Positions 19,632 through 54,647 are shown, counted from the first letter of the stretch. The stretch: DNA of 64,000 nt from Candidatus Zixiibacteriota bacterium (GCA_036481315.1 JAZGHS010000212.1:22363-86362); one strand, 5' to 3'. Notes: generated from the letters alone by a model not told the origin. Numbers and translations: made by a program.

Positions 19632-19651
19632 TAAATACGGAGAGCTGATGG

Positions 19652-22636: not shown

Positions 22637-22738
22637 TCGGGATGGGCGTTTCCGATGACACTACCAGGTTAAAGCCGACGGGAAGGTAGTCGAGGAAATC
22701 AAAACCTCTTTTATGGGTCCCGGTCCACGGAGGAATAA

Positions 22739-23200: not shown

Positions 23201-23206
23201 TGTAAA

Positions 23207-33051: not shown

Positions 33052-33056
33052 AAATA

Positions 33057-33079
33057 GGGGCCGAAATTAATTCGGCCCC
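33057..33079. terminator. hairpin between convergent genes; U-tract only on the minus strand
   Basis: GGGGCCGAA-ATTAA-TTCGGCCCC; minus-strand reading is followed by TATTTTTATT. Confidence 0.45.
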
Positions 33080-33115
33080 GGTTACTCAAACAGGATAAGT
33101 TATCTTAAGATCCTA

Positions 33116-35614: not shown

Positions 35615-35648
35615 TCTCTTTCCTCCGAAGAATATATTACCTAAGATG

Positions 35649-37622
35649 CTATCGTACCAATAACATATTATGGGTTGAAGAACCCTTTGAAGTTTTCAAT
35701 TGATAAAAATACAAACCGCTGGCAACCTGCTCCCCACGGCCGTTATCGCCATCCCAGCTGATCGTATGGTAACCGGGTGATTTAATTCCTTTATCGATCT
35801 TTTTCACACGTTGACCGAGACTATTATAAATAATAAATGAAACATCGGTCTGAACAAATAAAACATACGATATCATGGTTCCCGCGTTAAACGGATTGGG
35901 AAAATTATCATTCAATATAAAACTGATCGGGGGCGCGCTTCCGCCCTCTGTTAGTAAAATTGTTACCGATGAATCCGACGAAATATTAAATCCCGGCAAT
36001 AACTGATTGTCCAAAGCCGTTCCGACGGGCGGCGTGACCTCTATCGTATACACGCCCGAGTGCACGGTAATGTCTGCCGTACCGTCAATATCGGTATTAT
36101 CATGCGGGGTGAAGATTGTAGACCCGGAACTTTCCAATACAAAATCGAAATCGGCGGCCTCCACCGGTGACCCCCTCGGGTCGAGCACAAGTGCGGAAAA
36201 TATATAGCCCTCTTTTAATATAATATCGTTCCAGGTAGAGTCCTGATCTATAAAGACTTTTCCCAGATTCTCACCTACGTAACGGCTTCCCCTGAGAGGC
36301 TCGATCTCGGCGTTGAAACCACCGATCGGTACAAGTATGCTGTAATTCCCCAGAGAATCGGTGATGTTATCCGCGACGTAAATTTTCGAGCCAGCCACCG
36401 TATCGGAGAAATTTATCTCGATATCCACGAGTCCGGCGCTATCGGTATTTATAATTCTCCCCGATATATTGACTTTGGGGACCTCGGGCAGGAGAAAATC
36501 CATACTGGTATCCGCGAAAATGGTTACACCGTTCAATACCAGCCGATCGTAAATAGAACCGGGAGGCGGCTGAACCCTGATAGTGTAGATATCCGCCGGA
36601 ATCGCAATTGTGGTTACGCCCATACTGTCAGTCTCATCGTTCGGAGTGAAAAGTTTCGCCCCCGTACTCTCCTGAATAATATCGAGATCGGCGCCCGCTA
36701 TGGGATTACCGGTTGAGTCATGGACAAACGTAGAAAGAAGCCATCCCGCCTCCAAAATTTGATTCCGCGCGATATCGGCGTCGACAACGAAACTATCCAA
36801 TACTACACCAACGTAAGGGCTTCCGAGAGGAGGTTCATAGCGAAGCCTATACATCCCCGCGGGAACCGCCACGTTGTGATAACCGATCATATCGGTCTCG
36901 TTATTCGTAAGGTAAATTTTCTCACCTGTTATCATCGCTCTAAGATCTATACTGATATTTTCAAGCCCCTGGCCGAGTTCATCGGTTACATATCCGCTTA
37001 ATAGCATCCCCTCCGATAAGGAAACATCGATAACAGTATCGGCATAAATAGATAGGGAATCCATCTGCATTCCGAGCCAACGGGTTCCCGCCGGCGGTTG
37101 ATATCTCAGCCTGTAATTCCCCTGCGGAACCACAATCCAGTAATTGCCCAGACTGTCGGTTTTATCGTTTGGCGTATAGATCCTCTCCCCGGTTGATAAA
37201 TTATCGGCGTCCAGATCAACTCCGAGCACCGGCGAACCGTTACCGATAACCACCCCGTGAATTATTTTACCGAATCCAAGCGTGACATCAATCCGCCGAT
37301 CCACATATATTGAATCGTTAAACCTCCGGTGCCCCAAAAGATTCGTCCCAGGCGGAGGACCGTAAGAGATATTATAAACTCCGTTAGGTACCCAGATGGC
37401 GTAATATCCATCCTGATCGGTATTATCTCCTGGTGTGGGCACTCGCTCACCGGTTACGGCGTCATCGAAATCAAGATCGACATCGGCCACCGGGTTACCG
37501 TTAGGATCGTAAACAAACCCGGTAACATACGATATCAATGTGTCGGATACGCCTAAGCTTGCAAAGGCGAGGACTATCAAAATTCCGATAATCTTTAATA
37601 ATGTCGGTAAACGATGACTCAT
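35649..37622 (-). CDS. secreted multi-repeat protein (about 6 CarboxypepD_reg-like repeats) with a T9SS C-terminal sorting domain
   Basis: Same repeat family as 33116..35614. Canonical CTD FPNPFNAGTMISYVL...IYNSLGQRV...SGLYFYQLKT...NMLLVR. Confidence 0.65.
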   Translation of the reverse strand: MSHRLPTLLKIIGILIVLAFASLGVSDTLISYVTGFVYDPNGNPVADVDLDFDDAVTGERVPTPGDNTDQDGYYAIWVPNGVYNISYGPPPGTNLLGHRRFNDSIYVDRRIDVTLGFGKIIHGVVIGNGSPVLGVDLDADNLSTGERIYTPNDKTDSLGNYWIVVPQGNYRLRYQPPAGTRWLGMQMDSLSIYADTVIDVSLSEGMLLSGYVTDELGQGLENISIDLRAMITGEKIYLTNNETDMIGYHNVAVPAGMYRLRYEPPLGSPYVGVVLDSFVVDADIARNQILEAGWLLSTFVHDSTGNPIAGADLDIIQESTGAKLFTPNDETDSMGVTTIAIPADIYTIRVQPPPGSIYDRLVLNGVTIFADTSMDFLLPEVPKVNISGRIINTDSAGLVDIEINFSDTVAGSKIYVADNITDSLGNYSILVPIGGFNAEIEPLRGSRYVGENLGKVFIDQDSTWNDIILKEGYIFSALVLDPRGSPVEAADFDFVLESSGSTIFTPHDNTDIDGTADITVHSGVYTIEVTPPVGTALDNQLLPGFNISSDSSVTILLTEGGSAPPISFILNDNFPNPFNAGTMISYVLFVQTDVSFIIYNSLGQRVKKIDKGIKSPGYHTISWDGDNGRGEQVASGLYFYQLKTSKGSSTHNMLLVR

Positions 37623-37636
37623 ATCACTTCTCTAAC

Positions 37637-39451
37637 TTATATATCGATTTTCAAATTAAATCTGTTTATCGTCGCTTTCTTATCAAAGGGCGAATAAGCC
37701 TCGCCAGGTGTGAACATACCGAAAACCCATCCAATATGAACCCGATTCCAGAGTTTGGAAACTCCCAAAACGATATCCAAAGACGTTCCGATATCGTCGC
37801 TTACCCCGTTAGGGCGGGCAGGAGGATCAATCAGGTCCCCTCGCAAATCGGCCTCAGGCTGATCCTGTTTATAGACATGATAAACAACCTCGATCGAACC
37901 GTTATAAATCGGCTTGAATCCTACGCCAAAAGTAGTAATTATTAAATTGCTTAATTCCGGATCGAGAAGTTCGCCGTAATATTTGAATATCCGTACGCCT
38001 CCGAAATAACCGGTATTATCCTGAAAACCGGTCTGCCTGAATTCGTTATCGTCGGCACCAGTCTTTTCGCCGCTTCCACGGGCATATGCCACGGTAATCG
38101 ACGGCGAATAATTGACGTTTTCGGCTATGGCCGTTACTCCCAGATCCATTGCCGAAGCGCTCAATGATTTGCCTTTATCCGTACCTTTCATTATCACCAA
38201 TTCAGCCCAGGGGTTAAAATAATCTCCAACCTTGCCCATATAACCGGCGCCATACCATGATGGTTCCCGGTTGCGGGCTTGATCGCTGTCTTTTCTTACC
38301 AGAAGATACCCGCTTACAGTATTCTTATTGTTTACCTGCCAGCGAGCCCGGGCAAAAATATCCGACCAGGTCCTATATTTATTTTTTAGCTGAAAATCGG
38401 AATGAATATAAGCGAGCTCGTATATAACCGGCGCCTTGCCGTAATAATATAATCTCACCGCGTCGAGATACTCATCGAAAAGCCATTCCCGGGGATCTTC
38501 GATATCCTGCCGTCCCACCTGGACCGCAAAACCCTGCACACCTATATTTTTCGCCAGCACATAAAGCTGAGTGACTCGGCTCTCGAGCTTTTTCGACGGC
38601 GGATTGATCCTTTCGCTGTCTAAATAGATCCTCTCTCTTATACTGATCTGTCCAAAAGCGCGAAAAATATCGTTGAAATATCCGGCAAGTTCGGCCCTTA
38701 TCTCCGGCTGAGCATCCCTCTGATCATTTAGATAAAGATCGGATAGATCATATTCGGATTCGTTTTTTGCAGACTGACGGAAATTCCCGCTGATCAAAAA
38801 CTTATCCCCCGCGATAAATCCATAGTCGCTGTAATAAGCACGCGCCCAGGCCAATTCATCGAAAAGGTCCTCTTCAATTTTTTGAAACGAACTGCCCGGA
38901 TAGTTAACATCGGTCTTTCGATTCAGCAGAATTTTCAACCCGTGAATCTCCAAGGTGTCGGGAGGGTTACCGTCGACCGAAACTCCGGTCAGGGTGCCTT
39001 TGATTTTATTGCTCTTTTTGATATTCTTATGGTTGATTTTCCTGGCTTCCCAATTACCATCCTCCCTCACCTTACAGGTAACCTCCAGCCACTGACCTTC
39101 TTTGAGATCATTTATAGTCGTTAACCCGTCTCCAGAATCTGTGAATTGAGTTTTATCATCGATCTCGATCGATATCCCGTACATGGTGATAGTTTCTTTC
39201 TTCGAATCGACAATCTGCAAAATTCCCCGTAGTTTCGGCCGCCTCGGCTGAGGAAGCTCCTCTATATCGGAGGTTATAAACGCCCCCTGATCATTATCCC
39301 AATCGCCTTTTATCTCCACAGCCGGGATCTTCTCGAAATCGAGCCTCATGTATTCAGGCTCTCCTTCGGCCACGGCAATCTGAGATGAGAAAAGATACAA
39401 ACAAATCCCAAACAATAATCCGATTGTCACGATGGGCTGTTTTAAAGTCAT
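37637..39451 (-). CDS. putative outer-membrane beta-barrel (alginate-export/AlgE-like) with an N-terminal periplasmic domain
   Basis: Signal peptide. Alternating amphipathic beta-strand pattern with aromatic girdle residues. First gene of the glycan-locus tail. Confidence 0.35.
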   Translation of the reverse strand: MTLKQPIVTIGLLFGICLYLFSSQIAVAEGEPEYMRLDFEKIPAVEIKGDWDNDQGAFITSDIEELPQPRRPKLRGILQIVDSKKETITMYGISIEIDDKTQFTDSGDGLTTINDLKEGQWLEVTCKVREDGNWEARKINHKNIKKSNKIKGTLTGVSVDGNPPDTLEIHGLKILLNRKTDVNYPGSSFQKIEEDLFDELAWARAYYSDYGFIAGDKFLISGNFRQSAKNESEYDLSDLYLNDQRDAQPEIRAELAGYFNDIFRAFGQISIRERIYLDSERINPPSKKLESRVTQLYVLAKNIGVQGFAVQVGRQDIEDPREWLFDEYLDAVRLYYYGKAPVIYELAYIHSDFQLKNKYRTWSDIFARARWQVNNKNTVSGYLLVRKDSDQARNREPSWYGAGYMGKVGDYFNPWAELVIMKGTDKGKSLSASAMDLGVTAIAENVNYSPSITVAYARGSGEKTGADDNEFRQTGFQDNTGYFGGVRIFKYYGELLDPELSNLIITTFGVGFKPIYNGSIEVVYHVYKQDQPEADLRGDLIDPPARPNGVSDDIGTSLDIVLGVSKLWNRVHIGWVFGMFTPGEAYSPFDKKATINRFNLKIDI

Positions 39452-40758
39452 CTTTTTTCTCCGCTTAAAATGTTTTTCCCCTCTTGTGAACTATTTATTT
39501 CAAGTAATAGATTTTTCGCTATGCTTTTCCACCTGGGGCGAAGCGAATATAACCCCGCGAGACGTAATAGCGCCGCCGCCCTCCACCAATTCACCCGTTT
39601 TGTAAATTCTTTACCCGCCGATTCGTAGCCGCTCACAAACGCTTCCGATCCGTCTATGATCATCATCTCGTTCTCGGGCGATTGATACCGTCGTAAATCC
39701 AAATGTGCCATGAAATTCCCATAATCTAAAGCCGGGTCGGATAAGGCCATGTTATCGAAATCGAGCAGGGTTGCCCGACCGGGAGAATGAAGAGTCTGTT
39801 TGTCGTAAAAATCGCGATGAACGGGCCCGACCGCATAATCATCGCCGATTCTTCCCCGCGTAATCCCCGAGTAGGCGTCGCCGAACGCCTCACCAAGTTC
39901 GGGAAAGACACTATTTATAATATCGACTATTTTACTCAAACTGTCAAGCTCGTCGTCGGCTGTGTAATAGGGCAGATCGCCTAACGAAATCGAATGCAGT
40001 TTGCGAATCAATCGTCCCGCTTCATGGCAGGATTCGGGAAAAGATCGATTTCCGATTAACGAATGCAAAGACCGACCCGAAACGAATTCCATGAGTATAA
40101 TCCCGTGATCATTATCGCAACCCAGATACTCCGGTACAGTCAAACCATCGGATGAATCCGCGGTCATTTCGGTTGCGGAAAACTTTTCGAAGATTTTCAA
40201 AGCAGCCGCGATCTTTTTAGGACGTGCTATTTTGGCGACAACCTTGATTCTCTCGATACCGTCATTTTGTTTCATATCAAGTGTATATTCGAACACGCAT
40301 CGACGTTCAAGACGGTAGCCAAGCAAACGGCATTCGATCACATCGAACTTTTTTCCCGCGAGAAAGGGAATCGCCCCAAGACGTTTTTTAGGTTTACCCG
40401 TGACAACAAAATCGGGAAGATATTTGAGTTTAGGATCGTAAGGGAATACAGGGACGACCAAACCTATATCATCGAATATTATGAGGTCTTGCCGAGGCGC
40501 TAATGTTTTACCGGGCAGTGTCTGATCAAGCCCCAGCAAGTGACCCCATAATATAATTTTCTCTTCGCCTTTTTCCGTCTTGTCTATTATCAAATTGTAA
40601 CTGATAGAAAATCCACCGTCATTCCGAGGGAAAGCCCTGGGGATATACAGATATTTCAATTCCCCTTCTTTTCCCAAAAATCGATCGATCTCCTTTTGAA
40701 AACGGGATTTCATCCGATCGATATCTGTCGCGGCTTTAAAATTAGAAACTATTCCCAT
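39448..40758 (-). CDS. APH/choline-kinase-fold phosphotransferase (kinase B)
   Basis: Catalytic loop GPVHRDFYDKQ and a DFD metal-binding motif (LLDFDNM); paralog of the upstream gene. Confidence 0.55.
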   Translation of the reverse strand: MGIVSNFKAATDIDRMKSRFQKEIDRFLGKEGELKYLYIPRAFPRNDGGFSISYNLIIDKTEKGEEKIILWGHLLGLDQTLPGKTLAPRQDLIIFDDIGLVVPVFPYDPKLKYLPDFVVTGKPKKRLGAIPFLAGKKFDVIECRLLGYRLERRCVFEYTLDMKQNDGIERIKVVAKIARPKKIAAALKIFEKFSATEMTADSSDGLTVPEYLGCDNDHGIILMEFVSGRSLHSLIGNRSFPESCHEAGRLIRKLHSISLGDLPYYTADDELDSLSKIVDIINSVFPELGEAFGDAYSGITRGRIGDDYAVGPVHRDFYDKQTLHSPGRATLLDFDNMALSDPALDYGNFMAHLDLRRYQSPENEMMIIDGSEAFVSGYESAGKEFTKRVNWWRAAALLRLAGLYSLRPRWKSIAKNLLLEINSSQEGKNILSGEKR

Positions 40759-42119
40759 TACGACTCCAGGATCTTCTTACATTCGGCCAAAATCGTTGTT
40801 ATGCCTTCCTTCCAATTCGGCTCCAGCCTGCGAAACGGTCCCACAGCCAGTTGATAAAGCCCGAAGGCTATCCAGAAATTTAGATTCGACATCTCAATAT
40901 CTTTAATCTCTTTATACGTCTTCAAAAAGATCGTTTCTATATCTTTCTCGCCGTCAAGCTCGCCTCTTAAGCGCAACAGCTTTATGTGAGCCAGGAAGTT
41001 CCCTATGTCGAATACAGTATCGCCCCGATGGGATCGGTCGAAATCCAGTATCGATACTTTTCTTGTACGACATAATACCTGGCCGTAATAAAAATCGCCG
41101 TGAACAAAACCGGGTTTATCCGCCGCCAGAGAGTGATTTTTTAATTCATCGAAAATAGTATCGGCCAGTTTCGCCTCGATGGGAAGTATTTTTGTCAGCA
41201 TTCTGCGGGTTTCCTCGGCGTCATCGATATAACTTGCCCGAGATTTCTCGCTCAACCCAGGGATATCAAAACCATGCATTGCCGCCAGCGCGATTGCCGT
41301 CTTCGATATATTAGCCGCGCGGTTATCGCCCTCGATACTCTCTAAAAATTGTTTCCCCCGCGCTTTTTCCATAATCAACGCTTTTCTTTCGGGCAAGTAT
41401 GTCAATGGACGCGGCGAAGTGAACAAACCGGAATCTTCCGAGAGCTTATGAATCTTCTCTTGCAACGAAAACAGAGCCGCGCCCCGATCGTCAGCGTAAA
41501 CCCTTATATACAACTTTAGCCATACCCATTTGCTAGTTTCCCTGTTCTTCGCTCTCGCTCTGCAACGAAGCACAACACGTCGTTCCGGCTTATATCTGAC
41601 CGTACTCAGACTGATCTGTCTATTCGAAATACGCCATTTATCTTCCGGGTATTGGTCATAGTTCTCGTATAAAATCCTCTGGATCTTTTTAAGATCGGAC
41701 AGGATGCGAAGACCGTCGATTAAACAATCGTTCGGATAAAAATAAAGGATAGTGGCGTGCTCGGGAAGAGTTATGTACGGCTCCAAATCGGGAATCGGAA
41801 TCCAGCGCGATGATGCCGCCTTGCGCGTGGCGTTTTCATAATCATCCTCAGTATATAATTTAGCGTAAAATAATATCTCTTTGGGTTCGCCGTCCTTTTC
41901 TAACTGAAGCTGATAAGCAACAATACAATTTGTACCTGGTTTATATCTTATATAGAGAATACGACATTCCTTTACAACGCCCACGCTTTCAGGAAGCAGG
42001 TCGGCCAATATCGAGCCGACATTTTCCGGAACCAACAACACCGAAAGCCCCGGAAGGCTGTCATCGACCGGAATGTCGTCCCTTTTAATTTTATCCGCGT
42101 AACGTTCGCTTTTTAGCAC
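40758..42119 (-). CDS. APH/choline-kinase-fold phosphotransferase (kinase A)
   Basis: GFVHGDFYYGQ and ILDFDRS; 1-bp overlap with kinase B. Confidence 0.55.
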   Translation of the reverse strand: MLKSERYADKIKRDDIPVDDSLPGLSVLLVPENVGSILADLLPESVGVVKECRILYIRYKPGTNCIVAYQLQLEKDGEPKEILFYAKLYTEDDYENATRKAASSRWIPIPDLEPYITLPEHATILYFYPNDCLIDGLRILSDLKKIQRILYENYDQYPEDKWRISNRQISLSTVRYKPERRVVLRCRARAKNRETSKWVWLKLYIRVYADDRGAALFSLQEKIHKLSEDSGLFTSPRPLTYLPERKALIMEKARGKQFLESIEGDNRAANISKTAIALAAMHGFDIPGLSEKSRASYIDDAEETRRMLTKILPIEAKLADTIFDELKNHSLAADKPGFVHGDFYYGQVLCRTRKVSILDFDRSHRGDTVFDIGNFLAHIKLLRLRGELDGEKDIETIFLKTYKEIKDIEMSNLNFWIAFGLYQLAVGPFRRLEPNWKEGITTILAECKKILES

Positions 42120-42176
42120 TTTTAATATGCTCCCGGTTTCCTTTAGTGATTTTCTCCGCCGATGTATCGACCGGTT

Positions 42177-44039
42177 TCACTTATCCTCTAATTTTGCGTT
42201 CTTAGTTCCCTCTGGGATTTCTTCAGGAGGTTTAGCCGCCTCATTATCCAAATAATAATAAAACTCTCCTTTGCGCTTCAATAGTTCCTCGACGGTGCCC
42301 TGCTCGATTAGACGTCCGTCCTCGATATAAGCCGCCCAATCGGCAAGCTCCAGAAAATTCAATCTGTGTGTTATTATCAATAATGTCCGTCCCGGTTTCA
42401 ACGCTCTCAACGCCTCTATGGCTCCCTTCTCGGAGTGAATATCGAGGCCGGTGGCCGGCTCGTCGAAAATCATAATAGGAGAATTTTTCAACGCCGCCCG
42501 GGCGAAACTTATCCTCTGACGCTGTCCACCGGATAAAGTATCGCCGCCCTCGCCCACCAACGTCTCATATCCTTCCGAAAACTTCTCGATGAAACCATCG
42601 GCGCCCACAAGACGAGCGGCCTCTTCGATCTCCTCCCTGGTTGCCCCCGATTTACCGAAAGATATATTCTCCTCGATTGTCGTACGAAATAAAAAAGAAT
42701 CCTGGGTCAAGCTGGTAACCCGTTTACGAAGAGATCGGATTCTATATTCGCCGATATCACGCTTATCGATATATATCGCCCCCGCCTGTGCTTCGTACAA
42801 TCGAAGTAAAAGCTTGGCGATTGTGGATTTTCCGGCCCCAGTCGAGCCGATCAAGACCGTGGTCTTGCCCGCCGGGATAAACAGATTCATCCCTTTAAGC
42901 ACTTCGTTGCCGTCGATATAAGAAAAATATACGTCTTCGAATTTAATATTGCCTTTTATTCTCTTAGCCGATTTCGCGCCGGGATGATCCTCGACCTCAG
43001 GATGGATATCCAGTATCTCCATAATCTTCTCGCCGCGTACTATCGCTTTCGATGTCCGAGCCGAAAGGCTGGCAACCGTGCGTATAGGACGATATATACC
43101 GCGAAGATATGTAACGAAAATAATCAGATCGCCCGGCGAAATATTTCCCTCTAACGCTTTATGCGCCCCGATCAATAATACTATTCCGGTACCAACCGCG
43201 GTTACAATCTCAACCACCCTGGCGTAATTGGCGGCGAGTTTTGTGGTTCTGAGATTGGCCCTGAAATCGCTCGAAATCGATTTGCCTATCAACTTTTCCC
43301 GGATCTTTTCCTGGGCGAATGCTTTCACCTGGCTTATCCCCGAGATCGATTCCTCCATGGAGGCCACCATCTTGCCATACTTTTCGCGTTGACGATTGGC
43401 CGCGCTTTTTATTCTCCCTGTAAACTTAAAGGCGGCGATTACGAATAATGGCATAACCGCTAGAATCAATAGCGCTAATTGCCAGTCTAAAAAGAAAGCT
43501 ACCGAAAGCATCCCGAATATGAGAACAAATTGACCCACCAGGCGAATCAGGGTCTCTACCATCAAATCCTGCAAGAGGTTTATATCGCCGGTAAGCCTGG
43601 TGATGATTTCTCCGGTCTCACTGTAATCGTGATATGATTGCGGTAACCGTTGTACATGAGAGAAAAGCTGAAGCCGTATGGCGGCCAGTACCGCATGGCC
43701 TACCGTCTTGGCCCAGACGCTTTGAGCGTACTCGAGCGAACTGCTTATCAGGGCCATGGAAAGAATCGACCCGGCGGCGAGGAAAATCACGGTCATCGGA
43801 TCCCAACCCTTCAGGGGATTTAAAAACGAGATATCCGATGCTCGATCCGGCATTAACGCATAATCAAAAATAATTTTCAACGGCCACGGACGCAGAAGGG
43901 TCATTGCCGACATACCCAGTAACGCGAACGTGCTTAAGATCAGCTTGCCCTTGTGTGGTTTCAGATGCACGGCAAAATGGGATATCACCCTTCGTAATGA
44001 GCCAAAATCGATTTTAGCAAGTCCGTATTTTATTTTCAT
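42177..44039 (-). CDS. ABC exporter, fused TMD-NBD (MsbA-like lipid/glycolipid flippase type)
   Basis: 6 TM helices; Walker A GSTGAGKST; signature LSGGQRQRISFARA; Walker B IMIFDE. Confidence 0.8.
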   Translation of the reverse strand: MKIKYGLAKIDFGSLRRVISHFAVHLKPHKGKLILSTFALLGMSAMTLLRPWPLKIIFDYALMPDRASDISFLNPLKGWDPMTVIFLAAGSILSMALISSSLEYAQSVWAKTVGHAVLAAIRLQLFSHVQRLPQSYHDYSETGEIITRLTGDINLLQDLMVETLIRLVGQFVLIFGMLSVAFFLDWQLALLILAVMPLFVIAAFKFTGRIKSAANRQREKYGKMVASMEESISGISQVKAFAQEKIREKLIGKSISSDFRANLRTTKLAANYARVVEIVTAVGTGIVLLIGAHKALEGNISPGDLIIFVTYLRGIYRPIRTVASLSARTSKAIVRGEKIMEILDIHPEVEDHPGAKSAKRIKGNIKFEDVYFSYIDGNEVLKGMNLFIPAGKTTVLIGSTGAGKSTIAKLLLRLYEAQAGAIYIDKRDIGEYRIRSLRKRVTSLTQDSFLFRTTIEENISFGKSGATREEIEEAARLVGADGFIEKFSEGYETLVGEGGDTLSGGQRQRISFARAALKNSPIMIFDEPATGLDIHSEKGAIEALRALKPGRTLLIITHRLNFLELADWAAYIEDGRLIEQGTVEELLKRKGEFYYYLDNEAAKPPEEIPEGTKNAKLEDK

Positions 44040-45298
44040 AGTTTACCCGATTCGGTTTTCGCTCCGGCCATCAGGTCTTCAAAAATACGGCTGACCGTTT
44101 TCAATCGGCTATTCCAGGTATGCTTAGCAACAGCCTCGATCCTGGCGTTTTCTCCGAGTTTTTTTCTCAAACCCGGATCGTTTTTAAGCCTTAAAAGGGC
44201 GTCCCGCAACGCCACGGCATCTCCAGGAGGAACAAGGAGGGCGGTTTGTTCGTGAACCAGTATTTCCTCTATCTGCCCTATCGACGATGCCACTATCGCT
44301 TTCCCGGCCGCCATATATTCGAAAATCTTCAACGCCGAAAAATAAAAATCGTTCAGATCGGGATAAGGAGCAACTAAAACATCAGCCATTTCCAGAAAAG
44401 CGGGTATCGTTTCATGTTCAACGGAGCCGGTGAATTTCACCCGACCCTTCAACCCGAGTTCGCGGCACTTCTGTTTTAATTCTGATTTCAGTTTTCCCTT
44501 GCCACCTACCACAAGAAGCCTGTCTTTAATTTCGTTTTTTGATAGATCCGCGAAAGAGTCGATCAGGATCTCCACACCGTGCCAGGGTTTGAGACTGCCC
44601 ACAAAACCGACCACAAAATCGGATTTGTCGAACCGATCGAATGAAAGATCTATATCTTTCAAGCCGTCTGAATTCGTAAATTGCTCCACCGTTACACCGT
44701 TTGGAATAACCGATACCGCAGCCCCTGGCGCGACACTCTTAATATACCCGGCGACCTCGTCGGAAACGGATATTATATGATCCGCATCCTCGAAAAGATG
44801 TTGTGCTACCGATATGGCCAGATCCTTCTGCGCTAACCCCCGATATTCCGCGGCTTCCACAACCAGAGGAGCGTTGACTTCTAGAGTAAATGGAAGTCCG
44901 TTCGCCCGAGCAAATTTTAATCCCGCCTGGCAAAATAACGAGTATCGTTCGTATATAAGATCAAAATTGCTCTGCGAATGAAGCATCGATATAAAAGTCT
45001 CGACAGCGTTATTATGGTCAAATAAATTCATCTCCGCTGATATTTTATTATCTACAGTAGCGGCCGCCGAATTCTCCCCCGCCACGCTATCCGGCAGAGG
45101 GGGAAGATCGAAATACAAAACCGAGTTATACTGATGGCCATTGGCATCGGCGCCCCGGGCGACAACCGTAATATCATACCCCTGCTTTTGGAGATTGCTC
45201 ACAAATTCCCGCATATGAATAGAACCGCCCTTGGTGCCCCAGTAAGGAATACCGGTATCGGCGCAGAGGTAGAGTATTTTTCTTTTCGATTCACTCAT
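44036..45298 (-). CDS. GT4-family glycosyltransferase
   Basis: N-terminal ILYLCADTGIPYWGTKGGS; C-terminal EYMAAGKAIVASSIG (the E-x7-E region). 4-bp overlap with the ABC gene. Confidence 0.75.
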   Translation of the reverse strand: MSESKRKILYLCADTGIPYWGTKGGSIHMREFVSNLQKQGYDITVVARGADANGHQYNSVLYFDLPPLPDSVAGENSAAATVDNKISAEMNLFDHNNAVETFISMLHSQSNFDLIYERYSLFCQAGLKFARANGLPFTLEVNAPLVVEAAEYRGLAQKDLAISVAQHLFEDADHIISVSDEVAGYIKSVAPGAAVSVIPNGVTVEQFTNSDGLKDIDLSFDRFDKSDFVVGFVGSLKPWHGVEILIDSFADLSKNEIKDRLLVVGGKGKLKSELKQKCRELGLKGRVKFTGSVEHETIPAFLEMADVLVAPYPDLNDFYFSALKIFEYMAAGKAIVASSIGQIEEILVHEQTALLVPPGDAVALRDALLRLKNDPGLRKKLGENARIEAVAKHTWNSRLKTVSRIFEDLMAGAKTESGKL

Positions 45299-45319
45299 AT
45301 TATCTCTCGATTTCCATTC

Positions 45320-46576
45320 TTAGCCAGTAACCTGCGACAGGTCCCTTTTTTCAAGATAATGCCCGATCATCGTTTCTATGTTTTGCTTAAGATCGAATTT
45401 ATCTTGTGCTTTCTTGCGTCCCGCCAAGGAAAATCGGGCCTGAAGTTCTCTCGACGATAAAATTCGCTCGATCCACTCGGTTAATTTTATCGGATTGTCC
45501 GGTTCCACCAAAGCCCCGTTGATCTCATGATCAACCATCTCCGGCACGCCGGATATGGTCGTGGAGATTACAGGCAGACCTAAAGCGAGCGCTTCTATGA
45601 TGACCGTGGGCAAGGCGTCCTGGTTACCGTCGTTATCGACCGTGCAGGGCAGGCAAAACAGAGTCGCCCTACGCATAAGATCGAGAACCTCGTCCAACGT
45701 CTTCGCTCCGGTAAATTCGACATCGTCATCGGTCAACCCCAGTTCCGTTTTTTTATTATGAAGATTTTCCCATTCGGAACCGTCGCCGACTATAAGACAT
45801 TTAAAATCAACGCCTTTGTCTTTTAAAAGCCTGCAAGCGTCGAGAAGAGTCCCGAATCCCTTCTTAGGTACCAGCCGACCGACTCCCAATATCAGGCTTT
45901 CCTCCCGACCCCTGGTTTCCACGGGCGTAAATTCATCAAGATCGATACCATTGTGGATTACCTTTATCACGGACGGGTCTATATGGGGTGCGTTTTCGGT
46001 TAGATATTTATAGTTATAATTAGTTACGGTCACGACAAATTTTGCCGCGGCGAGTTTCTCGGCCAGAAGATGCTCTTTCATATCGTAAACGAAAATATCC
46101 TTGGCGTGAGCGGTGAAGCTGAAAGGGATGCCGGATATCAAATGCGCGTAATAAGCCATCGTACTCGGCTGACTGGCGAAATGAGCGTGAAAATGCGAAA
46201 TCCCCATCTCGATCCCCCTGGCCGCGATCCAGGCCGCGTGGAGAACCATCTCGATTTTATGATTGTTTTTCTCGGCCAGGCCCTGCTCGAGTAACGGCCA
46301 GAACCTATCTGCTCGAGGCGCGAGATACTCCCAAAGTTCGCCCAGCCACGTTCCCCACTTTTTAACGTCGAATCCCTCGAGATAATAAGCCCTGGCTTTC
46401 AAATAGGCGACCTGTGGATGAAATATCCCTTCGTTCGGTTTCTTAAGTGAAAATATAGATATCCGCGCGCCGCGACGTTCGAGTTCGAGCATTTCATTTA
46501 AGATAAACGTTTCCGAAATTCGCGGATACATCTTTACTATATAGCCGAGTTTTAAGTCTATTCCCTCTTCTAACAT
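45320..46576 (-). CDS. GT4-family glycosyltransferase
   Basis: GT-B fold; C-terminal EALALGLPVISTTISGVPEMV. Confidence 0.7.
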   Translation of the reverse strand: MLEEGIDLKLGYIVKMYPRISETFILNEMLELERRGARISIFSLKKPNEGIFHPQVAYLKARAYYLEGFDVKKWGTWLGELWEYLAPRADRFWPLLEQGLAEKNNHKIEMVLHAAWIAARGIEMGISHFHAHFASQPSTMAYYAHLISGIPFSFTAHAKDIFVYDMKEHLLAEKLAAAKFVVTVTNYNYKYLTENAPHIDPSVIKVIHNGIDLDEFTPVETRGREESLILGVGRLVPKKGFGTLLDACRLLKDKGVDFKCLIVGDGSEWENLHNKKTELGLTDDDVEFTGAKTLDEVLDLMRRATLFCLPCTVDNDGNQDALPTVIIEALALGLPVISTTISGVPEMVDHEINGALVEPDNPIKLTEWIERILSSRELQARFSLAGRKKAQDKFDLKQNIETMIGHYLEKRDLSQVTG

Positions 46577-47847
46577 ACAGCTTTCTCTTTCGTTTTTTCA
46601 ATTTCAGCCAGAGATTCTCCTATATATCGCGCCAATCGACTCGCACCGTCAAGCCACAGAAGATTGTCGGCGCGCGCTTCTGCCAGCTTTTCGTCCGGCT
46701 CGGATAATCTCTCCTCGATAGCCTGACCGAGCGATTCAGGTGTTAAATCGTCCGGATGTATAAACCTAATAAGTCCCAGATCTCCAAACCTCTGTGCCCG
46801 GATAAGCTGTTCTTTCCTGTATAATATTCGGGGCACAACTACGGCCTGAGACGCGAAGCTCAAAATATCGGTCATGGTGTTGTATCCGCCCGTGGAGATT
46901 ACCAAGGCGCTTCGTTTCATCAAAGACCCGGGGTCCGAAACATATCTGAAAATACTTGCCCCAACCTCTTCCGCTTGCTTTTGAAAGGCCTCCCATTTCT
47001 CCTGTGATAAAAACGGGCCTGTCAGTATCACGCTTTTATGATCGCTTCTATTCTTCTTACGACGTAATACCTTTAAAAAATCATCGATCACCGTCTCGCC
47101 GCCGTCGCCGCCGCCGATCGTGACCAGCACCAACTTCTCCTGGGCCTCTTCCGGCTCGTTTGAAATAGACCCGTCATTATTATAGGTAGTGATAAATCCG
47201 CAATATCGGGTCTTGAACGCGATATCGTCGGGAAAATCATATTCGGCCACAGGATCGAAAATCGTCGGCATTCCATATATAAATATCCGATTATAAAGAT
47301 TGCGTATTATTTCGAAGATCCCCTGTTTGGTCCAACTTTCTATTGTACTCGATGGGCTGTCCAGGATATCCCTAAGCCCTAAAATAGCCCGCGATTTATC
47401 ATTGTTCGCGGCGATCCATTCCAGGCAGGGAACAATCTCCCTTTTCATCCCCAACGGAGCGTGATCGACAAGGAGAATATGAGGCTCGTAGTTCCTGACC
47501 GTTTCGAGCAATACACTCCTGCGAACCGCCAATATCCTTTTGAAGGTGATTCCAAGATATCTGGCCGCGTAACCCTCATCGTTTACCTTGTGCACCGAAG
47601 GTAACTTGATATAATCGGTACCGTCGGGAATAGTAAACTGATGAGCCTGCGGTGAACCGGTGGCGATTAAGACCGAAAGTTCGGGATAGGCGGCTTTAAG
47701 AGCCGAGGCTATTTTAAGATTCCTGCTCAAATGCCCCAAGCCAAAAGTATCATGAGAATATAACATAACCCGAAAACCGATGCCAACACCGTTGTATAGC
47801 GGTCTCTGTGTCTCGACCGATCGGGTATTTTCTCTTAACCTATCCAA
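46570..47847 (-). CDS. GT-B glycosyltransferase of the MurG/MGT-like (GT28/COG4671-type) family
   Basis: N-terminal MLYSHDTFGLGHLSRNLKIA, a Gly-rich UDP-sugar loop typical of GT28/GT1. Confidence 0.5.
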   Translation of the reverse strand: MDRLRENTRSVETQRPLYNGVGIGFRVMLYSHDTFGLGHLSRNLKIASALKAAYPELSVLIATGSPQAHQFTIPDGTDYIKLPSVHKVNDEGYAARYLGITFKRILAVRRSVLLETVRNYEPHILLVDHAPLGMKREIVPCLEWIAANNDKSRAILGLRDILDSPSSTIESWTKQGIFEIIRNLYNRIFIYGMPTIFDPVAEYDFPDDIAFKTRYCGFITTYNNDGSISNEPEEAQEKLVLVTIGGGDGGETVIDDFLKVLRRKKNRSDHKSVILTGPFLSQEKWEAFQKQAEEVGASIFRYVSDPGSLMKRSALVISTGGYNTMTDILSFASQAVVVPRILYRKEQLIRAQRFGDLGLIRFIHPDDLTPESLGQAIEERLSEPDEKLAEARADNLLWLDGASRLARYIGESLAEIEKTKEKAVC

Positions 47848-47862
47848 AAAGACCTCGGTTTT

Positions 47863-49263
47863 TTATATTTGCCCTATGCTCCGATATTCGAACCCGTAGC
47901 GGCGGATTAATTCCGGAGAGAGTATATTGCGAGCGTCGACAATCTTCTTATGCCTCATAATTTCCCCGGCTTTCTTCCAATCGAATAATTGAAATTCCGA
48001 CCATTCGGTTAATATAACGGCACAATCGACACCATCTAAAGCGTCATACGATGTTTCCGTCACATCAAGATCGGGCAACTGACGTTTGGCATCGACGCCG
48101 GCGGCGGGATCGTAAGCTTTAACGATAAAACCGTTATCCAGAAGCTTCCGCGCTATGGCCATGGCCGGAGAATCACGTAAATCGCTGGTCTCCGCTTTGA
48201 ACGAAAGCCCGAGAATTCCAATTCTCTTCTTTTCGATATCGGTTGTCAGATCCTTGATCTTGGATACCACAAAATCGTGTTGTATAATATTTGCTTTTTT
48301 TACCGCTTCTAATATCAACAAAGGGATACCACGGGAATTACCCAGTCCGGTAAATTCCTGCAGATCCTTGGGAAGGCACGACCCGCCCCACCCGGGACCG
48401 GGGTTTAAAAACTCCGAGCCGATTCTGGAATCCATGCCCATCGCCCGGGCAACCTCTAATACGTCGATACCAACATTATCACAAAGCATTGCCAGCTCGT
48501 TGATAAACCCGATCTTGGTGGCCAGAAAAGCGTTCGACGCGTATTTTATCATCTCGGCCGTCTCATTATTGGTCACTATGGTCGGTGACGGTTTAACCGC
48601 GCCCATCCTGTAAATATGCTGAATGGTATCGATGGCCTCCGATGAATCACCTCCTATTACAATCCGATGGGGATTGAAAAAATCGTAAACCGCGGTCCCC
48701 TCCCGCAAAAACTCGGGGTTACTTATAATCGCTATTTCGCCGTTTTCGCAACCGTTACGCTTCAAAATCTGTTTTAGCTCGGCAGCGGTTCCTATCGGAA
48801 CGGTGCTCCTGATCACCACCACCTGCCCCGGCTTGAGAACCTTACCCAGATTATCAACTATTCCGTAAATAGCGCTTAAATCTGCCCTACCGCTATCGTC
48901 CGACGGTGTGCCTACCGCGATAAACGCTGCCTTCTGTCCCGCAAGAGAATTCTCCAGATCCGACGAGAACGAAAGTCGTCCGCTCTTCACGTTGCTCTTT
49001 ATCAACTCCTCCAGATCTCGCTCAAAAAATGGTAGCCGCCCCTCCTTCAACATAGCCAGTTTGTCGGCGTCCTTCTCCACGCAAACCACATTATGCCCGA
49101 ATTTCGCGAGACCTGCGGCCGTAACACAACCGACGAACCCGGCGCCAATAACGCAAATGTTCACACCGGTCAAAGGCCCGGATAAAGGGGCCGCCGTTTC
49201 GGAAAACTCCTCGGTACGGATATGTGTCGCGTCATTAGATCGTTCATCATCCATCGCCAACAC
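47863..49263 (-). CDS. ugd: NAD-dependent nucleotide-sugar 6-dehydrogenase (UDP-glucose 6-dehydrogenase family)
   Basis: Rossmann motif ICVIGAGFVGCVTAAGLA; catalytic Cys GGSCLPKD. Confidence 0.8.
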   Translation of the reverse strand: MLAMDDERSNDATHIRTEEFSETAAPLSGPLTGVNICVIGAGFVGCVTAAGLAKFGHNVVCVEKDADKLAMLKEGRLPFFERDLEELIKSNVKSGRLSFSSDLENSLAGQKAAFIAVGTPSDDSGRADLSAIYGIVDNLGKVLKPGQVVVIRSTVPIGTAAELKQILKRNGCENGEIAIISNPEFLREGTAVYDFFNPHRIVIGGDSSEAIDTIQHIYRMGAVKPSPTIVTNNETAEMIKYASNAFLATKIGFINELAMLCDNVGIDVLEVARAMGMDSRIGSEFLNPGPGWGGSCLPKDLQEFTGLGNSRGIPLLILEAVKKANIIQHDFVVSKIKDLTTDIEKKRIGILGLSFKAETSDLRDSPAMAIARKLLDNGFIVKAYDPAAGVDAKRQLPDLDVTETSYDALDGVDCAVILTEWSEFQLFDWKKAGEIMRHKKIVDARNILSPELIRRYGFEYRSIGQI

Positions 49264-49527
49264 CTTTCTTTACAATGACGCCCAAAACGTCTCTATTATT
49301 CGAACCTCTATTTATCTCTAGAATCATGCTGCCAATCACCCTGGAGTCGAATTCAGAGTCAAATTAACAAGACAACAATTTAAATCAAGTCTTTTAATTA
49401 AACAAATAGTATGCCAAAAAATAGACTAATTTAACCTATTGCCAATAACAAGTTTATAAAAATCAACGTTTTGAAAATAGTAGTCAACACTAATTAAGTA
49501 TTGTTTATATAAACCAATTGGTTCTTT

Positions 49528-50925: not shown

Positions 50926-50943
50926 TGCAAATCTACTCTCCGC

Positions 50944-52413: not shown

Positions 52414-52532
52414 TTTTCCACCGGGTCGCTTTTCATAATGTCGCTTAAGTTATAGCTATTTTGAATTGGAGATATCAAGCTATAATCGGTATTCGTTGCT
52501 CAGATCGACTTGATTTAATAGATATCGCCATC

Positions 52533-54631: not shown

Positions 54632-54647
54632 CGGAGAGTTTTAGTTT

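Follow-up and report, generated by a model that had tools for sequence, protein, structure and literature searches.

An apparently uncharacterised, multi-phylum gene module that probably builds, phosphorylates and exports a sugar chain

The 64-kb stretch of DNA analysed here (the window) carries, on its minus strand, eight closely packed genes between positions 37637 and 49263. ORF calls together with Pfam and NCBIfam domains confirm that these genes are real, with the coordinates, domains and spacing given in an earlier sequence-only reading. Adjoining genes overlap by 7 bp (first glycosyltransferase and first GT4), 4 bp (second GT4 and ABC exporter) and 1 bp (the two kinases), and an additional 4-bp overlap joins the second kinase gene to that of the outer-membrane barrel. 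The first gene encodes a nucleotide-sugar 6-dehydrogenase (Ugd-like; 47863–49263; TIGR03026, 444.5 bits against a cut-off of 189.8) that is the probable source of UDP-glucuronic acid; this specificity we only infer, because the TuaD and AglM equivalogs score under their cut-offs. It is followed by a GT-B glycosyltransferase of the GT1/GT28 clan with a MurG-like C-terminal domain (46570–47847; Glyco_tran_28_C, 50 bits), for which GT1 small-molecule glycosyltransferases, MurG, sterol glycosyltransferases and diacylglycerol (DAG) glycosyltransferases all score alike, and whose nearest structural relatives use lipophilic aglycones or lipid-linked sugars as substrates. Two GT4 enzymes come next: the EpsE/WcaL-like GT4a (45320–46576; Glycos_transf_1, 122.6 bits), which reaches 193 bits against the EpsE model NF041876, below its cut-off of 400, and GT4b (44036–45298; Glycos_transf_1, 112.6 bits; Glyco_transf_4, 44 bits).

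The inner-membrane exporter is an ABCB/MsbA-type half-transporter of TMD-NBD architecture (42177–44039; ABC_membrane, 155 bits; ABC_tran, 108 bits). Among NCBIfam models it scores best against MsbA (TIGR02203), still below the cut-off (385 versus 602 bits), and its best PDB matches are ABCB1/ABCB4, Sav1866 and MsbA. Two paralogous kinases follow: kinase A (40758–42119), of the APH/ELK fold (APH fold, 43 bits) with an N-terminal domain of ~170 aa, and kinase B (39448–40758; PF01636, 33 bits). Their catalytic loops read HGDFYYGQ and HRDFYDKQ, respectively, each with a DFD motif, and the H[RG]D-x4-[QN] loop and Mg-binding D-x-[DE] are kept in both paralogues in all lineages, so that both are catalytically competent by motif. 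The HGDF(H/Y)xGQ...DFD loop matches those of glucosamine kinase and maltokinase (PMC6520443, PMC4306142). By fold the pair lies nearest to small-molecule kinases, among them the sugar kinases MTRK (methylthioribose kinase), maltokinase and NahK, and not to WaaP; the fold alone gives no substrate specificity. The last of the eight genes encodes an AlgE-like outer-membrane beta-barrel that starts with a signal peptide and has DUF5666 as a periplasmic domain (37637–39451; PF13372, Alginate_exp, 88.7 bits; PF18914, 34.7 bits). Its sole PDB relative is AlgE (3e-8), and the conserved residues of the barrel family, examined for an anion-selective pore, are of mixed charge.

The sequence-only reading had the gene content right and drew the boundaries too narrowly, as the transcription unit is larger on both sides. 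It appears to run from a sigma-54 promoter (49402–49416) through ten co-directional genes, the final two of which code for paralogous secreted Ig-repeat proteins, to a terminator (33057–33079). The first repeat-protein gene (35649–37622), earlier taken for a neighbouring T9SS cargo gene, begins 14 bp downstream of the barrel gene and combines about six CarboxypepD_reg/Big_1-type repeats (Pfam) with a C-terminal T9SS sorting domain (TIGR04183, type A; 37 bits, cut-off 23). The second (33116–35614) has a signal peptide, ~90-aa repeats of the kind seen in the first, and two PKD domains (PKD_4 and CarboxypepD_reg in Pfam), and is 27–29% identical to the first over ~500 aa (E = 9e-48). Both are conserved operon members: an orthologue of the first stands right after the barrel gene in eight homologous loci, and the second is conserved in zixibacterial, ignavibacterial and Krumholzibacteriota loci, while Planctomycete versions have related repeat proteins nearby. 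We regard them as accessory because neither the proteobacterial nor the actinobacterial versions have them. The intrinsic terminator, a 9-bp stem with seven GC pairs followed by a T-run on the operon strand, lies 37 nt past the last gene and faces a convergent amidase gene; it is the strongest terminator-like site within 32900–52600 and the only intergenic one on this strand.

Upstream, on the same strand, lies a two-component system that had been overlooked, as had the promoter. The sensor histidine kinase (50944–52413; HAMP, HisKA and HATPase_c in Pfam) has a periplasmic region of ~150 aa between two TM segments, before the HAMP domain (Pfam, hydropathy), and a histidine kinase gene occupies the equivalent position in 11 homologous loci. 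Its partner (49528–50925) is an NtrC-type response regulator with a REC domain (Response_reg, 95 bits), a sigma-54 AAA+ activator domain (Sigma54_activat, 192 bits) and a Fis-type HTH (HTH_8, 46 bits), 65% identical to its counterpart in one homologous locus (L001). Five nucleotides beyond the regulator's stop codon lies a perfect 12-bp palindrome, AACCAATTGGTT (49512–49523), which occurs once in the window and may serve the sigma-54 activator as an enhancer (UAS); ten orthologous loci have related (A)ACC-N4-GGTT elements, some duplicated, at this position, and we infer that the NtrC-type activator binds there. The -24 element follows ~95 nt downstream. The sigma-54-type -24/-12 element itself, TGGCAT-ACTAT-TTGT, lies on the operon strand ~140 nt upstream of the ugd start. 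The window contains two matches to such an element where 0.34 would be expected, and this match is correct in both intergenic location and orientation. GGCA[CT]-N5-TTG[CTA] is found at the matching place in nine of ten orthologous loci examined, the -12 element of L001 being weaker (TTTC). Operon status is thus supported by tight spacing, by the conserved sigma-54 element and palindrome, and by a single strong 3' terminator.

This locus represents one copy of a module that is apparently uncharacterised; neither a curated NCBIfam equivalog nor a paper on it was found, in keeping with its earlier description as apparently undescribed. The core consists of the MurG/GT1-like glycosyltransferase, the two GT4s, the ABCB-type exporter and the two kinases, with the AlgE-like barrel added in diderms. 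The order GT28C-GT4-GT4-ABC-kinase-kinase(-barrel) is colinear in 62 of the 80 loci retrieved from other genomes, which argues against chance juxtaposition, and both GT4s are conserved within it; among metagenome loci, colinearity holds at kinase identities as low as 31%. The module is not confined to the FCB group, in which the sequence-only reading suggested a neighbourhood search, and spans at least six phyla (Zixibacteriota, Ignavibacteria, Krumholzibacteriota, Planctomycetota, Actinomycetota, Proteobacteria and others). Barrel presence tracks the outer membrane (Proteobacteria 4/4, Actinomycetota 0/12). The module is also plasmid-borne in 18 of 5,426 complete E. coli genomes, in copies >99% identical, where with Ugd it forms an eight-gene island (NZ_CP012501.1, 159889–170067) between unrelated flanks, an IS630 element on one side and fdn genes on the other. 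Such an island speaks for the self-sufficiency of the module. A Ugd gene is likewise attached in 5 of 12 Actinomycetota and in one further locus (L002), and the fact that Zixibacteria, Actinomycetota and E. coli recruited it independently suggests that the product contains a uronic acid. A cytoplasmic sulfotransferase, which is another anionic decoration, is present in some versions, and the extracytoplasmic partners of other lineages (right-handed beta-helix, BNR, sulfatase and CarboxypepD_reg repeat proteins) are glycan-type proteins. In most lineages a two-component system accompanies the module, and in other versions the first glycosyltransferase is frequently fused to REC or REC-PAS, consistent with its being the regulated committed step.

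Several component families admit quite different readings. An MGT-like glycosyltransferase, APH kinases and an ABCB multidrug-type exporter are classical resistance families, and weak matches to MGT (3.5e-7), OleI (2e-5), a macrolide 2'-phosphotransferase and a corramycin phosphotransferase would suit an island in which the glycosyltransferase and APH enzymes modify a toxic small molecule, xenobiotic or antibiotic, that the ABC pump and channel then expel. All of these matches, however, fall far under curated cut-offs (MGT, for example, 29.6 bits versus 260), this reading gives no role to the two GT4s, Ugd, the AlgE-like barrel or the secreted glycan-type proteins, and the sigma-54-dependent two-component system and REC-glycosyltransferase fusions point to a regulated biosynthetic output; we consider it very unlikely. 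Hardly credible at all is a ribosomal peptide phosphorylated on precursor Ser/Thr by LxmK-like kinases, decorated by the glycosyltransferases and exported by the ABC protein: LxmK is matched at 46 bits where the cut-off is 315, none of the loci has a precursor, lyase, cyclase or peptidase-domain ABC gene, neither the tightly packed operon nor the set of loci showed a small conserved ORF, and Ugd and the AlgE-like barrel fit poorly.

We lean instead towards reading the locus as a ten-gene, sigma-54-dependent operon under two-component control that forms a self-contained line for an acidic, phosphorylated, uronic-acid-containing exported glycan. The module would build a sugar chain in the cytoplasm, phosphorylate it and, probably, export it. 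The sensor kinase would activate the NtrC-type regulator, which would bind the upstream palindrome and open the -24/-12 promoter. With UDP-glucuronic acid from Ugd, the three soluble cytoplasmic GT-B enzymes may assemble a short defined glycan or repeat on an acceptor that the module does not encode; the inverting GT1/GT28-clan enzyme probably catalyses the first, regulated transfer and so starts the chain. Both kinases are cytoplasmic, having neither a signal peptide nor a hydrophobic segment, and in many genomes they form one fused protein of 750–820 aa, which suggests that A and B are probably a heterodimer. This sugar-kinase-like pair would add phosphate from ATP to the glycan or its first sugar. 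The earlier proposal that the product is flipped and then phosphorylated is topologically untenable; since the kinases are ATP-dependent and cytoplasmic, phosphorylation must come before export. The exporter, as a homodimer, would then carry the product over the inner membrane, and the barrel with its periplasmic DUF5666 domain would pass it through the outer membrane, with no periplasmic adaptor found to join the two. At the surface, the two Ig-repeat proteins, the first with its T9SS sorting domain, may bind or organise the product. The earlier claim that the genes form one coherent unit for assembling and exporting a glycoconjugate, with an ABC exporter and an outer-membrane barrel of its own, is supported.

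The earlier preference for a lipid-linked or glycolipid substrate fares less well, given the ambiguous matches of the first glycosyltransferase and the AlgE-like barrel, which argues for a hydrophilic product. ABCB/MsbA-type exporters typically take amphipathic substrates, however, and with the relatives of the first glycosyltransferase this means that a lipid-anchored product fits no worse than a soluble one. Close to the earlier idea would be a membrane-retained phosphoglycolipid: the GT1/GT28-clan enzyme glycosylates a membrane lipid (diacylglycerol, ceramide or polyprenol), the GT4s lengthen its head group, which the kinases phosphorylate at the cytoplasmic face as WaaP/WaaY do the LPS core, the MsbA-like transporter flips the product, and the diderm barrel helps its insertion into, or exposure at, the outer membrane. 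Such a pathway needs no lipid carrier, ligase or polymerase, would work in monoderm Actinomycetota too, and agrees with an exporter that scores best against MsbA and resembles the ABCB4 lipid floppase. Yet AlgE-type barrels pass hydrophilic polymers, lateral-gate or Lpt-like machinery is absent, no version has an acyltransferase or lipid-synthesis gene, and the secreted partners (beta-helix, BNR and Ig-repeat proteins) suggest an extracellular glycan, so that we consider it unlikely, if worth keeping in mind.

Among the ORFs of 150 aa or more in the 64-kb window (off operon-strand overlaps), the search bore out the sequence-only reading: it turned up no Wzx, Wzy or Wza, no priming phosphoglycosyltransferase and no acyltransferase. 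Nor do Wzx/Wzy-type genes seem to lie just outside it: ~60 homologous loci, the E. coli plasmid islands included, have no Wzx/Wzy/Wza or priming transferase. WecA-type primers occur in most bacteria, which would explain why the module never carries a priming enzyme if the glycan were conventionally linked to undecaprenyl pyrophosphate (Und-PP). In such a scheme a housekeeping WecA-type enzyme would prime the glycan, the ABC protein would flip it as PglK or Wzk does, and enzymes encoded outside the module would ligate it to LPS core, peptidoglycan or protein; the closest NCBIfam models for GT4a (EpsE, WcaL and TuaC) and the MurG-like enzyme also act on Und-PP intermediates. We hold this improbable, as none of ~70 loci links a ligase, oligosaccharyltransferase or polymerase to the module, the strictly co-inherited barrel would be superfluous if the product rode lipid A via Lpt, and the PglK equivalog scores 159 bits against a cut-off of 1000.

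Several known systems resemble the module, each in part. The teichuronic acid (tua) operon of Bacillus subtilis shares with it a TuaD-like dehydrogenase (404 bits) together with GT4s similar to TuaC and TuaH, but every module match is under the equivalog cut-off, and the TuaA priming enzyme, TuaB flippase, TuaE/F polymerase and TuaG are absent from the window and homologous loci. ChvA/NdvA (cyclic beta-glucan) and HepA (heterocyst envelope polysaccharide) are also MsbA-like half-transporters, and these two export hydrophilic glycans; the module ABC protein scores below cut-off against both (glucan-exporter model, 320 versus 733 bits; HepA family, 333 versus 725), the module has neither an NdvB/Cgs synthase nor Hep island genes, and those systems are without kinases or an AlgE-like barrel. 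The relation of the kinases to maltokinase (Mak/Pep2) and actinobacterial glucosamine kinase is marginal in sequence (Mak, 2e-4 over 90 residues), and they lack the glucosamine-kinase signature Q-x2-RE-x2-YA-x3-LP-x-W; unlike either enzyme, they occur as an A/B pair or fusion in an export operon, not in a GlgE/TreS context.

LPS core synthesis (WaaG-type GT4s, WaaP/WaaY, MsbA) follows a similar logic, with cytoplasmic GT-B assembly of a glycan and two ATP-dependent kinases acting before an ABCB-type half-transporter takes the product over the inner membrane. However, the module has no Kdo, heptose or lipid A genes, is found in monoderm Actinomycetota too, has kinases structurally closer to APH/MTRK/maltokinase than to WaaP and an exporter under MsbA equivalog cut-offs, and uses an AlgE-like barrel, not Lpt, at the outer membrane. 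With the alginate system of Pseudomonas it shares a barrel of AlgE's Pfam family linked to a uronic-acid supply gene, AlgD there and Ugd here; it differs in having no Alg8/Alg44 synthase, AlgK, AlgX, AlgG or AlgL, in an inner-membrane step by an ABC exporter instead of a c-di-GMP-controlled synthase, and in the additional N-terminal DUF5666 domain of its barrel. E. coli O9a likewise relies on cytoplasmic GT4s without Wzx/Wzy, on glycan phosphorylation by the protein-kinase-fold WbdD and on ABC export. Its exporter is Wzm/Wzt, whereas the module combines a fused type IV (MsbA-like) exporter with two obligate paralogous kinases, a core without a methyltransferase or WaaL dependence, and an outer-membrane channel of its own.

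We read this locus, with rather more belief than doubt, as a signal-induced, self-contained production line for an exported glycan that is phosphorylated and contains uronic acid. A short uronic-acid-containing glycan would be assembled in the cytoplasm and phosphorylated there by a heterodimeric pair of sugar kinases; its export would be the task of an MsbA-like ABC protein, an AlgE-like pore would pass it outside in diderms, and lineage-specific repeat or β-helix proteins would handle it outside the cell. What separates the three main rival readings is the kind of carrier or the roles given to the genes. ORF calling returned eight co-directional minus-strand ORFs with exactly the coordinates of an earlier sequence-only reading, and the gene overlaps of 7, 4, and 1 bp listed there are correct; a further 4-bp overlap lies between the genes for kinase B and the barrel. 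The first gene (ugd, 47863-49263) does encode the nucleotide-sugar dehydrogenase proposed (TIGR03026, 444.5 bits against a cut-off of 189.8, all three Pfam domains present), and its best NCBIfam equivalog matches, with TuaD, AglM, and PRK15057 compared, are UDP-glucose dehydrogenases, all of them below cut-off (TuaD, 404.6 versus 700). The label of GT28/MGT-like transferase holds for the next product (46570-47847) as regards its only Pfam domain, Glyco_tran_28_C (PF04101), and its GT-B fold, but the MurG and MGT equivalog cut-offs are missed. Both predicted GT4s are borne out by Pfam (45320-46576 and 44036-45298; Glycos_transf_1, 122.6 and 112.6 bits, plus N-terminal GT4 domains), as are the two APH-fold proteins of 453 and 436 aa (kinase A, 40758-42119; kinase B, 39448-40758) and the AlgE-like outer-membrane barrel (37637-39451; 604 aa, DUF5666 plus Alginate_exp). 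The proposed MsbA-like flippase (42177-44039) has the fused ABC_membrane/ABC_tran architecture and counts MsbA among its best models, but it falls below the MsbA equivalog cut-offs.

The eight genes are real, but the unit to which they belong is larger than first drawn, with a two-component system upstream and two secreted-protein genes downstream. Directly upstream and on the same strand, Pfam identifies a HAMP/HisKA sensor kinase (50944-52413) and an NtrC-type σ54 activator (49528-50925). The 264 nt between the regulator and ugd hold a correctly oriented σ54-type element found by pattern search, TGGCAT-ACTAT-TTGT (49402-49416, minus strand), and a perfect palindrome, AACCAATTGGTT (49512-49523), unique in the window; read from the sequence, this is the layout expected of an enhancer and a σ54 promoter. 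The σ54 pattern occurs twice in the window, where 0.34 occurrences would be expected. The other, TGGCATATTGGTTGC (5381-5395, minus strand), lies inside an 898-aa ORF on the opposite strand and is probably a chance match. At the equivalent place, nine of ten orthologous loci have a −24/−12 element of the form GGCA[CT]-N5-TTG[CTA], the exception (L001) having a weaker TTTC −12; several of the orthologous loci have TTGC at the −12, where the window has TTGT. A palindrome-like site likewise recurs at the equivalent position among the ten loci compared and is duplicated in some. An enhancer-binding protein with a Sigma54_activat domain, together with a −24/−12 element of the GG-N10-GC type, predicts dependence on RpoN. 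In an Rfam scan of 33000-53000, the leader matched no riboswitch or other RNA family.

At the other end, the T9SS cargo gene reported 14 bp 3′ of the barrel gene is there (35649-37622), and its 657-aa product carries a type A sorting domain at residues 574-652 (TIGR04183, 37.1 bits against a cut-off of 23). The gene for an 832-aa paralogue (33116-35614), in which no T9SS sorting domain was detected, starts 34 bp further on; the two proteins are 27-29% identical over ~500 aa and have ~90-aa Asp-rich repeats in common. The repeat signature, VDLD..D..TG....P.DNTD..G.Y...VP.G.Y, resembles calcium-binding SdrD-B/CarboxypepD_reg modules. The only strong intergenic intrinsic terminator on this strand (33057-33079, minus strand) follows, facing a convergent amidase gene. 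With the candidate promoter and enhancer upstream and this terminator downstream, the transcription unit most likely consists of ten genes (~16.3 kb) under the adjacent two-component system. Elsewhere in the window, a 958-aa protein (28362-31238) has a C-terminal T9SS sorting domain and no other recognizable domain.

Conservation of the neighborhood, proposed earlier as a check, is extensive. Metagenome loci reached through kinase homologues keep the order sensor kinase, response regulator, (Ugd), GT28C, GT4, GT4, ABC, APH, APH, DUF5666/Alginate_exp, and Ig-repeat protein even at 31% kinase identity, and in other metagenome versions both kinases are fused (~790 aa). A genome scan with a 10-sequence kinase alignment, taking one genome per GTDB species, gave 80 loci, in which ORFs were called and searched with the window proteins. 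GT4a, GT4b, and the ABC gene adjoin the kinase in 63 of these 80, and 62 of the 63 are colinear; the loci with less than this full neighborhood are mostly on short contigs. These 80 loci come from Zixibacteriota, Ignavibacteria, Krumholzibacteriota, Planctomycetota/Phycisphaerae, Gemmatimonadota, Opitutaceae, Chloroflexota, Acidimicrobiales, and Arthrobacter/Pseudarthrobacter, and, as proteobacterial hosts, from Mixta tenebrionis, Enterobacter sp., and Lampropedia hyalina. The six-gene core is present in all 12 actinobacterial loci. The barrel is absent from all 12 and present in all four proteobacterial loci, as predicted for an outer-membrane conduit.

Some versions depart from this plan. 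PAPS-type sulfotransferase genes occur in L004 (1934-2925) and, between the ABC and kinase genes, in L005 (9017-9997), a homologous locus that also has a divergent alkaline phosphatase gene upstream. In the Zixibacteriota locus L011 (1379-4217), two tandem copies of kinase A precede kinase B, the extra copy having DLE, not DFD. A subgroup of Planctomycetota has a 565-593-aa protein without a Pfam match at the first-glycosyltransferase position (L036, 3639-5336; L057, 3668-5449). Two further loci of this subgroup (L067 and L068) encode a long GT28C-like protein on the other strand (~18840-21070), adjoining a sensor kinase/σ54 regulator pair downstream of the barrel gene. An exact-sequence look-up of the window kinases in an assembly index gave no match.

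Plasmids carry the module as well. By tblastn it was found on p296221 of Paracoccus aestuarii DSM 19484, beside its own sensor kinase and response regulator, and on ten Escherichia plasmids. The island on pCFSAN004179G consists of eight genes, annotated as GT28, GT4, GT4, ABC, APH, phosphotransferase, alginate export protein, and nucleotide-sugar dehydrogenase, and is flanked by an IS630 transposase and fdn genes. Copies in 18 of 5,426 complete E. coli genomes, L086 (NZ_CP012501.1, 159889-170067) being one, have at least 99% identity, and all are plasmid-borne. The plasmids are large, conjugative, and of IncF type, from bovine, food, and human isolates, and sta1 (heat-stable enterotoxin) lies ~3 kb from the island. 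A DNA search of E. coli with the Enterobacter copy gave only a spurious ABC ATPase match.

The E. coli copy bears directly on what the locus might lack. A Pfam scan of the window's ORFs of at least 150 aa that were neither nested in nor overlapping genes already annotated detected none of the following: Wzx, Wzy, Wza/OPX, PCP, a priming phosphoglycosyltransferase, or an acyltransferase. Wzx, Wzy, and a priming phosphoglycosyltransferase are likewise missing from the Pfam gene tables of those loci that were inspected individually and from the annotated E. coli and Paracoccus plasmid copies, the remaining genome loci having been screened with twelve window proteins only, a query set blind to these enzymes. 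The possibility, raised with the original description, of a known LPS-core or teichuronic-acid locus with its missing genes just outside is contradicted by the island, which has unrelated genes on both sides; the module plus Ugd thus appears sufficient by itself. With no priming enzyme, Wzx, or Wzy in the window or in the loci so inspected, the locus was rejected as a teichuronic-acid (tua) locus. A WecA-primed Und-PP glycan, which would draw on a ligase encoded elsewhere, seems to us improbable.

The first transferase resembles MurG in its donor-binding half only (MurG TIGR01133, 28.5 against a cut-off of 250; MGT TIGR01426, 29.6 against 260). Its AF2 model (pLDDT 89.5) is about equally close to the natural-product GT1 enzymes YojK (27.2) and CalG1 (26.6), MurG (24.9), a sterol glucosyltransferase (24.2), PimA (23.9), and MGDG synthase (23.4), and this near-equal closeness to GT1 enzymes, MurG, and lipid glycosyltransferases argues for an inverting GT-B enzyme of the GT1/GT28 clan. 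Characterized members of the clan use lipophilic or lipid-linked acceptors, which does not fix the acceptor here. These fold neighbors, and the ABCB type of the exporter, would suit a phosphoglycolipid that is kept in the membrane, a product we consider unlikely. At least 5,406 proteins belong to the GT28C-like family at E ≤ 1e-10 (among 8,000 candidates scored), and a striking fraction have an N-terminal REC or REC-PAS fusion. The two REC-fused enzymes looked up (L087, 7642-12082; L002, 3959-5611) both lie inside the same module, and such fusions make the first transfer look like a regulated, committed step. DUF5666, which makes up the periplasmic end of the barrel protein, also serves as the periplasmic sensor domain of the partner histidine kinase in L087; more speculatively, the product might be sensed through it. 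For the two GT4s the resemblance is to EpsE/WcaL/TuaC-type and stp3/MshA-type enzymes, with scores that fall far short of equivalog cut-offs.

Neither kinase has a signal peptide or any hydrophobic segment, and on this topology both act in the cytoplasm. This excludes the order given in the sequence-only reading, in which the glycan is flipped and then phosphorylated. Both have the APH/eukaryotic-like small-molecule kinase fold, with an H-x-D-x4-(N/Q) loop and a D-x-(D/E/G) Mg site. H340, G341, D342, Q347, D359, and D361 are invariant in the kinase A family, and H-[GR]-D-x4-[QN] followed by D-x-[DE] is kept in both paralogues in all loci, which suggests that both are probably active enzymes and neither a pseudokinase. 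Their genes are always adjacent in the order A-B and are fused, A first, in many lineages; we infer a heterodimer from this. The loop is of the maltokinase/glucosamine kinase kind (HGD-x-H-x-GQ with DF(D/E)): kinase A of the window has HGDFYYGQ and DFD, and most homologues have HGD[FL]H..Q. Gln here takes the place of Asn at the second Mg ligand, and the motif that goes with the loop is DFD or DLE. The glucosamine kinase SjGlcNK has DVHGDFHVGQI and DFD (PMC6520443), and maltokinase has HGD and DFE, the loop of both being matched by the module kinases (PMC6520443, PMC4306142). The extra N-terminal ~170 residues open with three long antiparallel strands, which may correspond to the cystatin-like N-cap described for these enzymes. 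Full-length similarity to them is marginal, and the glucosamine-kinase signature Q-x2-RE-x2-YA-x3-LP-x-W was not seen on inspection of the C-terminal helix region of either kinase; an invariant Trp (W436) is present. Searched alone against 1.84 billion representative proteins, the N-terminal domain gave 722 matches; among the 150 listed, nearly all align N-terminally, the full-length proteins being kinases of ~430-480 or ~750-820 aa and the others mostly shorter, fragment-sized entries, so that the domain appears specific to this kinase family.

We conclude that A and B are likely sugar or small-molecule kinases whose substrate would be a monosaccharide precursor or the assembled glycan. The labels “aminoglycoside phosphotransferase” and “glycosyl transferase family 28” on module proteins are almost certainly misleading. 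A resistance island and a RiPP cluster were both rejected as readings and, even taken together, have only a very slight chance of being right. WaaP and Kdo-kinase LPS kinases are not the closest fold or family match of either kinase, and the reading as an LPS-core locus was rejected.

The ABC protein scores best with the MsbA, HepA, and glucan-exporter models but reaches none of their equivalog cut-offs (for MsbA, TIGR02203, 385 bits against 602, and NF008381, 340 against 867), and it is best described as a generic ABCB-type half-transporter. Nor does export follow the Wzm/Wzt or KpsMT type: the fused exporter is the only ABC protein of the operon, which has no Wza or PCP. The barrel scores 88.7 bits with Alginate_exp (PF13372, cut-off 25.2, residues 241-592), and AlgE is its only solved relative (PDB match 3e-8, residues 429-562). 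No linked Alg8, Alg44, AlgK, AlgX, or AlgG was found in the window or in ~85 related loci; the barrel belongs to the AlgE protein family and not to the alginate system. An electropositive pore was sought in its conserved residues, and the invariant ones are of mixed charge. No periplasmic adaptor is encoded.

These components also allow a bolder joint reading, which we regard as doubtful: an unrecognized, lipid-carrier-independent route of glycan synthesis and secretion, which would be at work across six or more phyla and also from ETEC/STEC-type E. coli plasmids. A short oligosaccharide with uronic acid would be built on a sugar phosphate made by the maltokinase-like A/B pair or, alternatively, the pair would supply sugar-1-phosphate donors to the GT4s; a soluble polyanion would leave through the MsbA-like ABC protein and then the AlgE-like pore, and the two-component switch would often act directly on a REC-fused first transferase.

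Our preferred reading of an exported, phosphorylated glycan also takes in the accessory extracytoplasmic genes, which vary by lineage and all encode proteins of glycan type. The Zixibacteriota, Ignavibacteria, and Krumholzibacteriota group has T9SS or secreted CarboxypepD_reg/Big_1/PKD repeat proteins; Planctomycetota have a 794-aa right-handed β-helix protein and a CarboxypepD_reg protein, with a TPR-GAF σ54 activator as regulator; and L087 has BNR and sulfatase proteins. Small β-helix and CarboxypepD_reg proteins, of the same domain types as the partners of the planctomycetal module, are also encoded in the window at 7848-9269, adjoining a 193-aa ORF (7220-7801). That ORF and three others (4462-7158, 898 aa; 14301-15179, 292 aa; 26420-27982, 520 aa) gave no hit in Pfam at E ≤ 1e-5. 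Also in the window are a cbb3-type oxidase cluster (19652-23965) with CcoN and CcoO fused in 710 aa (COX1 plus FixO), after which come FixP, FixH, and a DsbD_2 protein, a P-type ATPase (17054-19468) standing before the cluster; DUF6599 paralogues 30 kb apart (24176-25078 and 56138-57049), with a TAT-signal DUF362 protein after the second and, ahead of it, a Peptidase_C92 protein and a polysaccharide deacetylase (53690-56120); and two signaling proteins, a GAF-SpoIIE (PP2C) phosphatase of 840 aa (1438-3960) and an HDOD/HD-domain protein (15219-16706).

The module occurs widely in phyla that have been little studied (Zixibacteriota, Planctomycetota, Krumholzibacteriota, Acidimicrobiia), and the two-component control that is almost always present suggests an inducible envelope, matrix, or signaling substance. 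Since copies also occur in tractable hosts (E. coli plasmids and cultured Paracoccus, Mixta, Enterobacter, Lampropedia, and Arthrobacter), its chemistry and function are directly testable; cultivable carriers include Paracoccus aestuarii DSM 19484, Mixta tenebrionis BIT-26, and Pseudarthrobacter sp. BRE9. If the product is ordinary, for instance a decorated lipid-linked oligosaccharide, several thousand “aminoglycoside phosphotransferase” and “glycosyl transferase family 28” annotations still gain a context; the interest rises if its synthesis needs no lipid carrier, or if sugar-phosphate acceptors or donors come from the kinases.

Few routes are recognized for the assembly of bacterial surface and secreted glycans, namely Wzx/Wzy, ABC-2 transporter, synthase, and sucrase-type, and the module fits none of them. 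What would set it apart is the combination of an MsbA-like exporter and an AlgE-like porin with an obligate, universally conserved pair of probably active sugar-kinase-like enzymes. It fails the defining tests of the alginate, LPS-core/MsbA, maltokinase/MTRK, Wzx/Wzy, ABC-2, and tua systems; no NCBIfam equivalog exists for any module-specific protein, RefSeq annotation being generic, and no paper on it was found in the literature searched, which mostly did not extend to subscription journals. On these grounds we rate it a bacterial glycoconjugate assembly and export locus of undescribed architecture. It has the family of its outer-membrane component in common with the alginate system, whose synthase genes it lacks; its inner-membrane component and the logic of “glycosylate, phosphorylate, then flip” in common with the LPS-core/MsbA system; and its kinase chemistry in common with the maltokinase/MTRK group.
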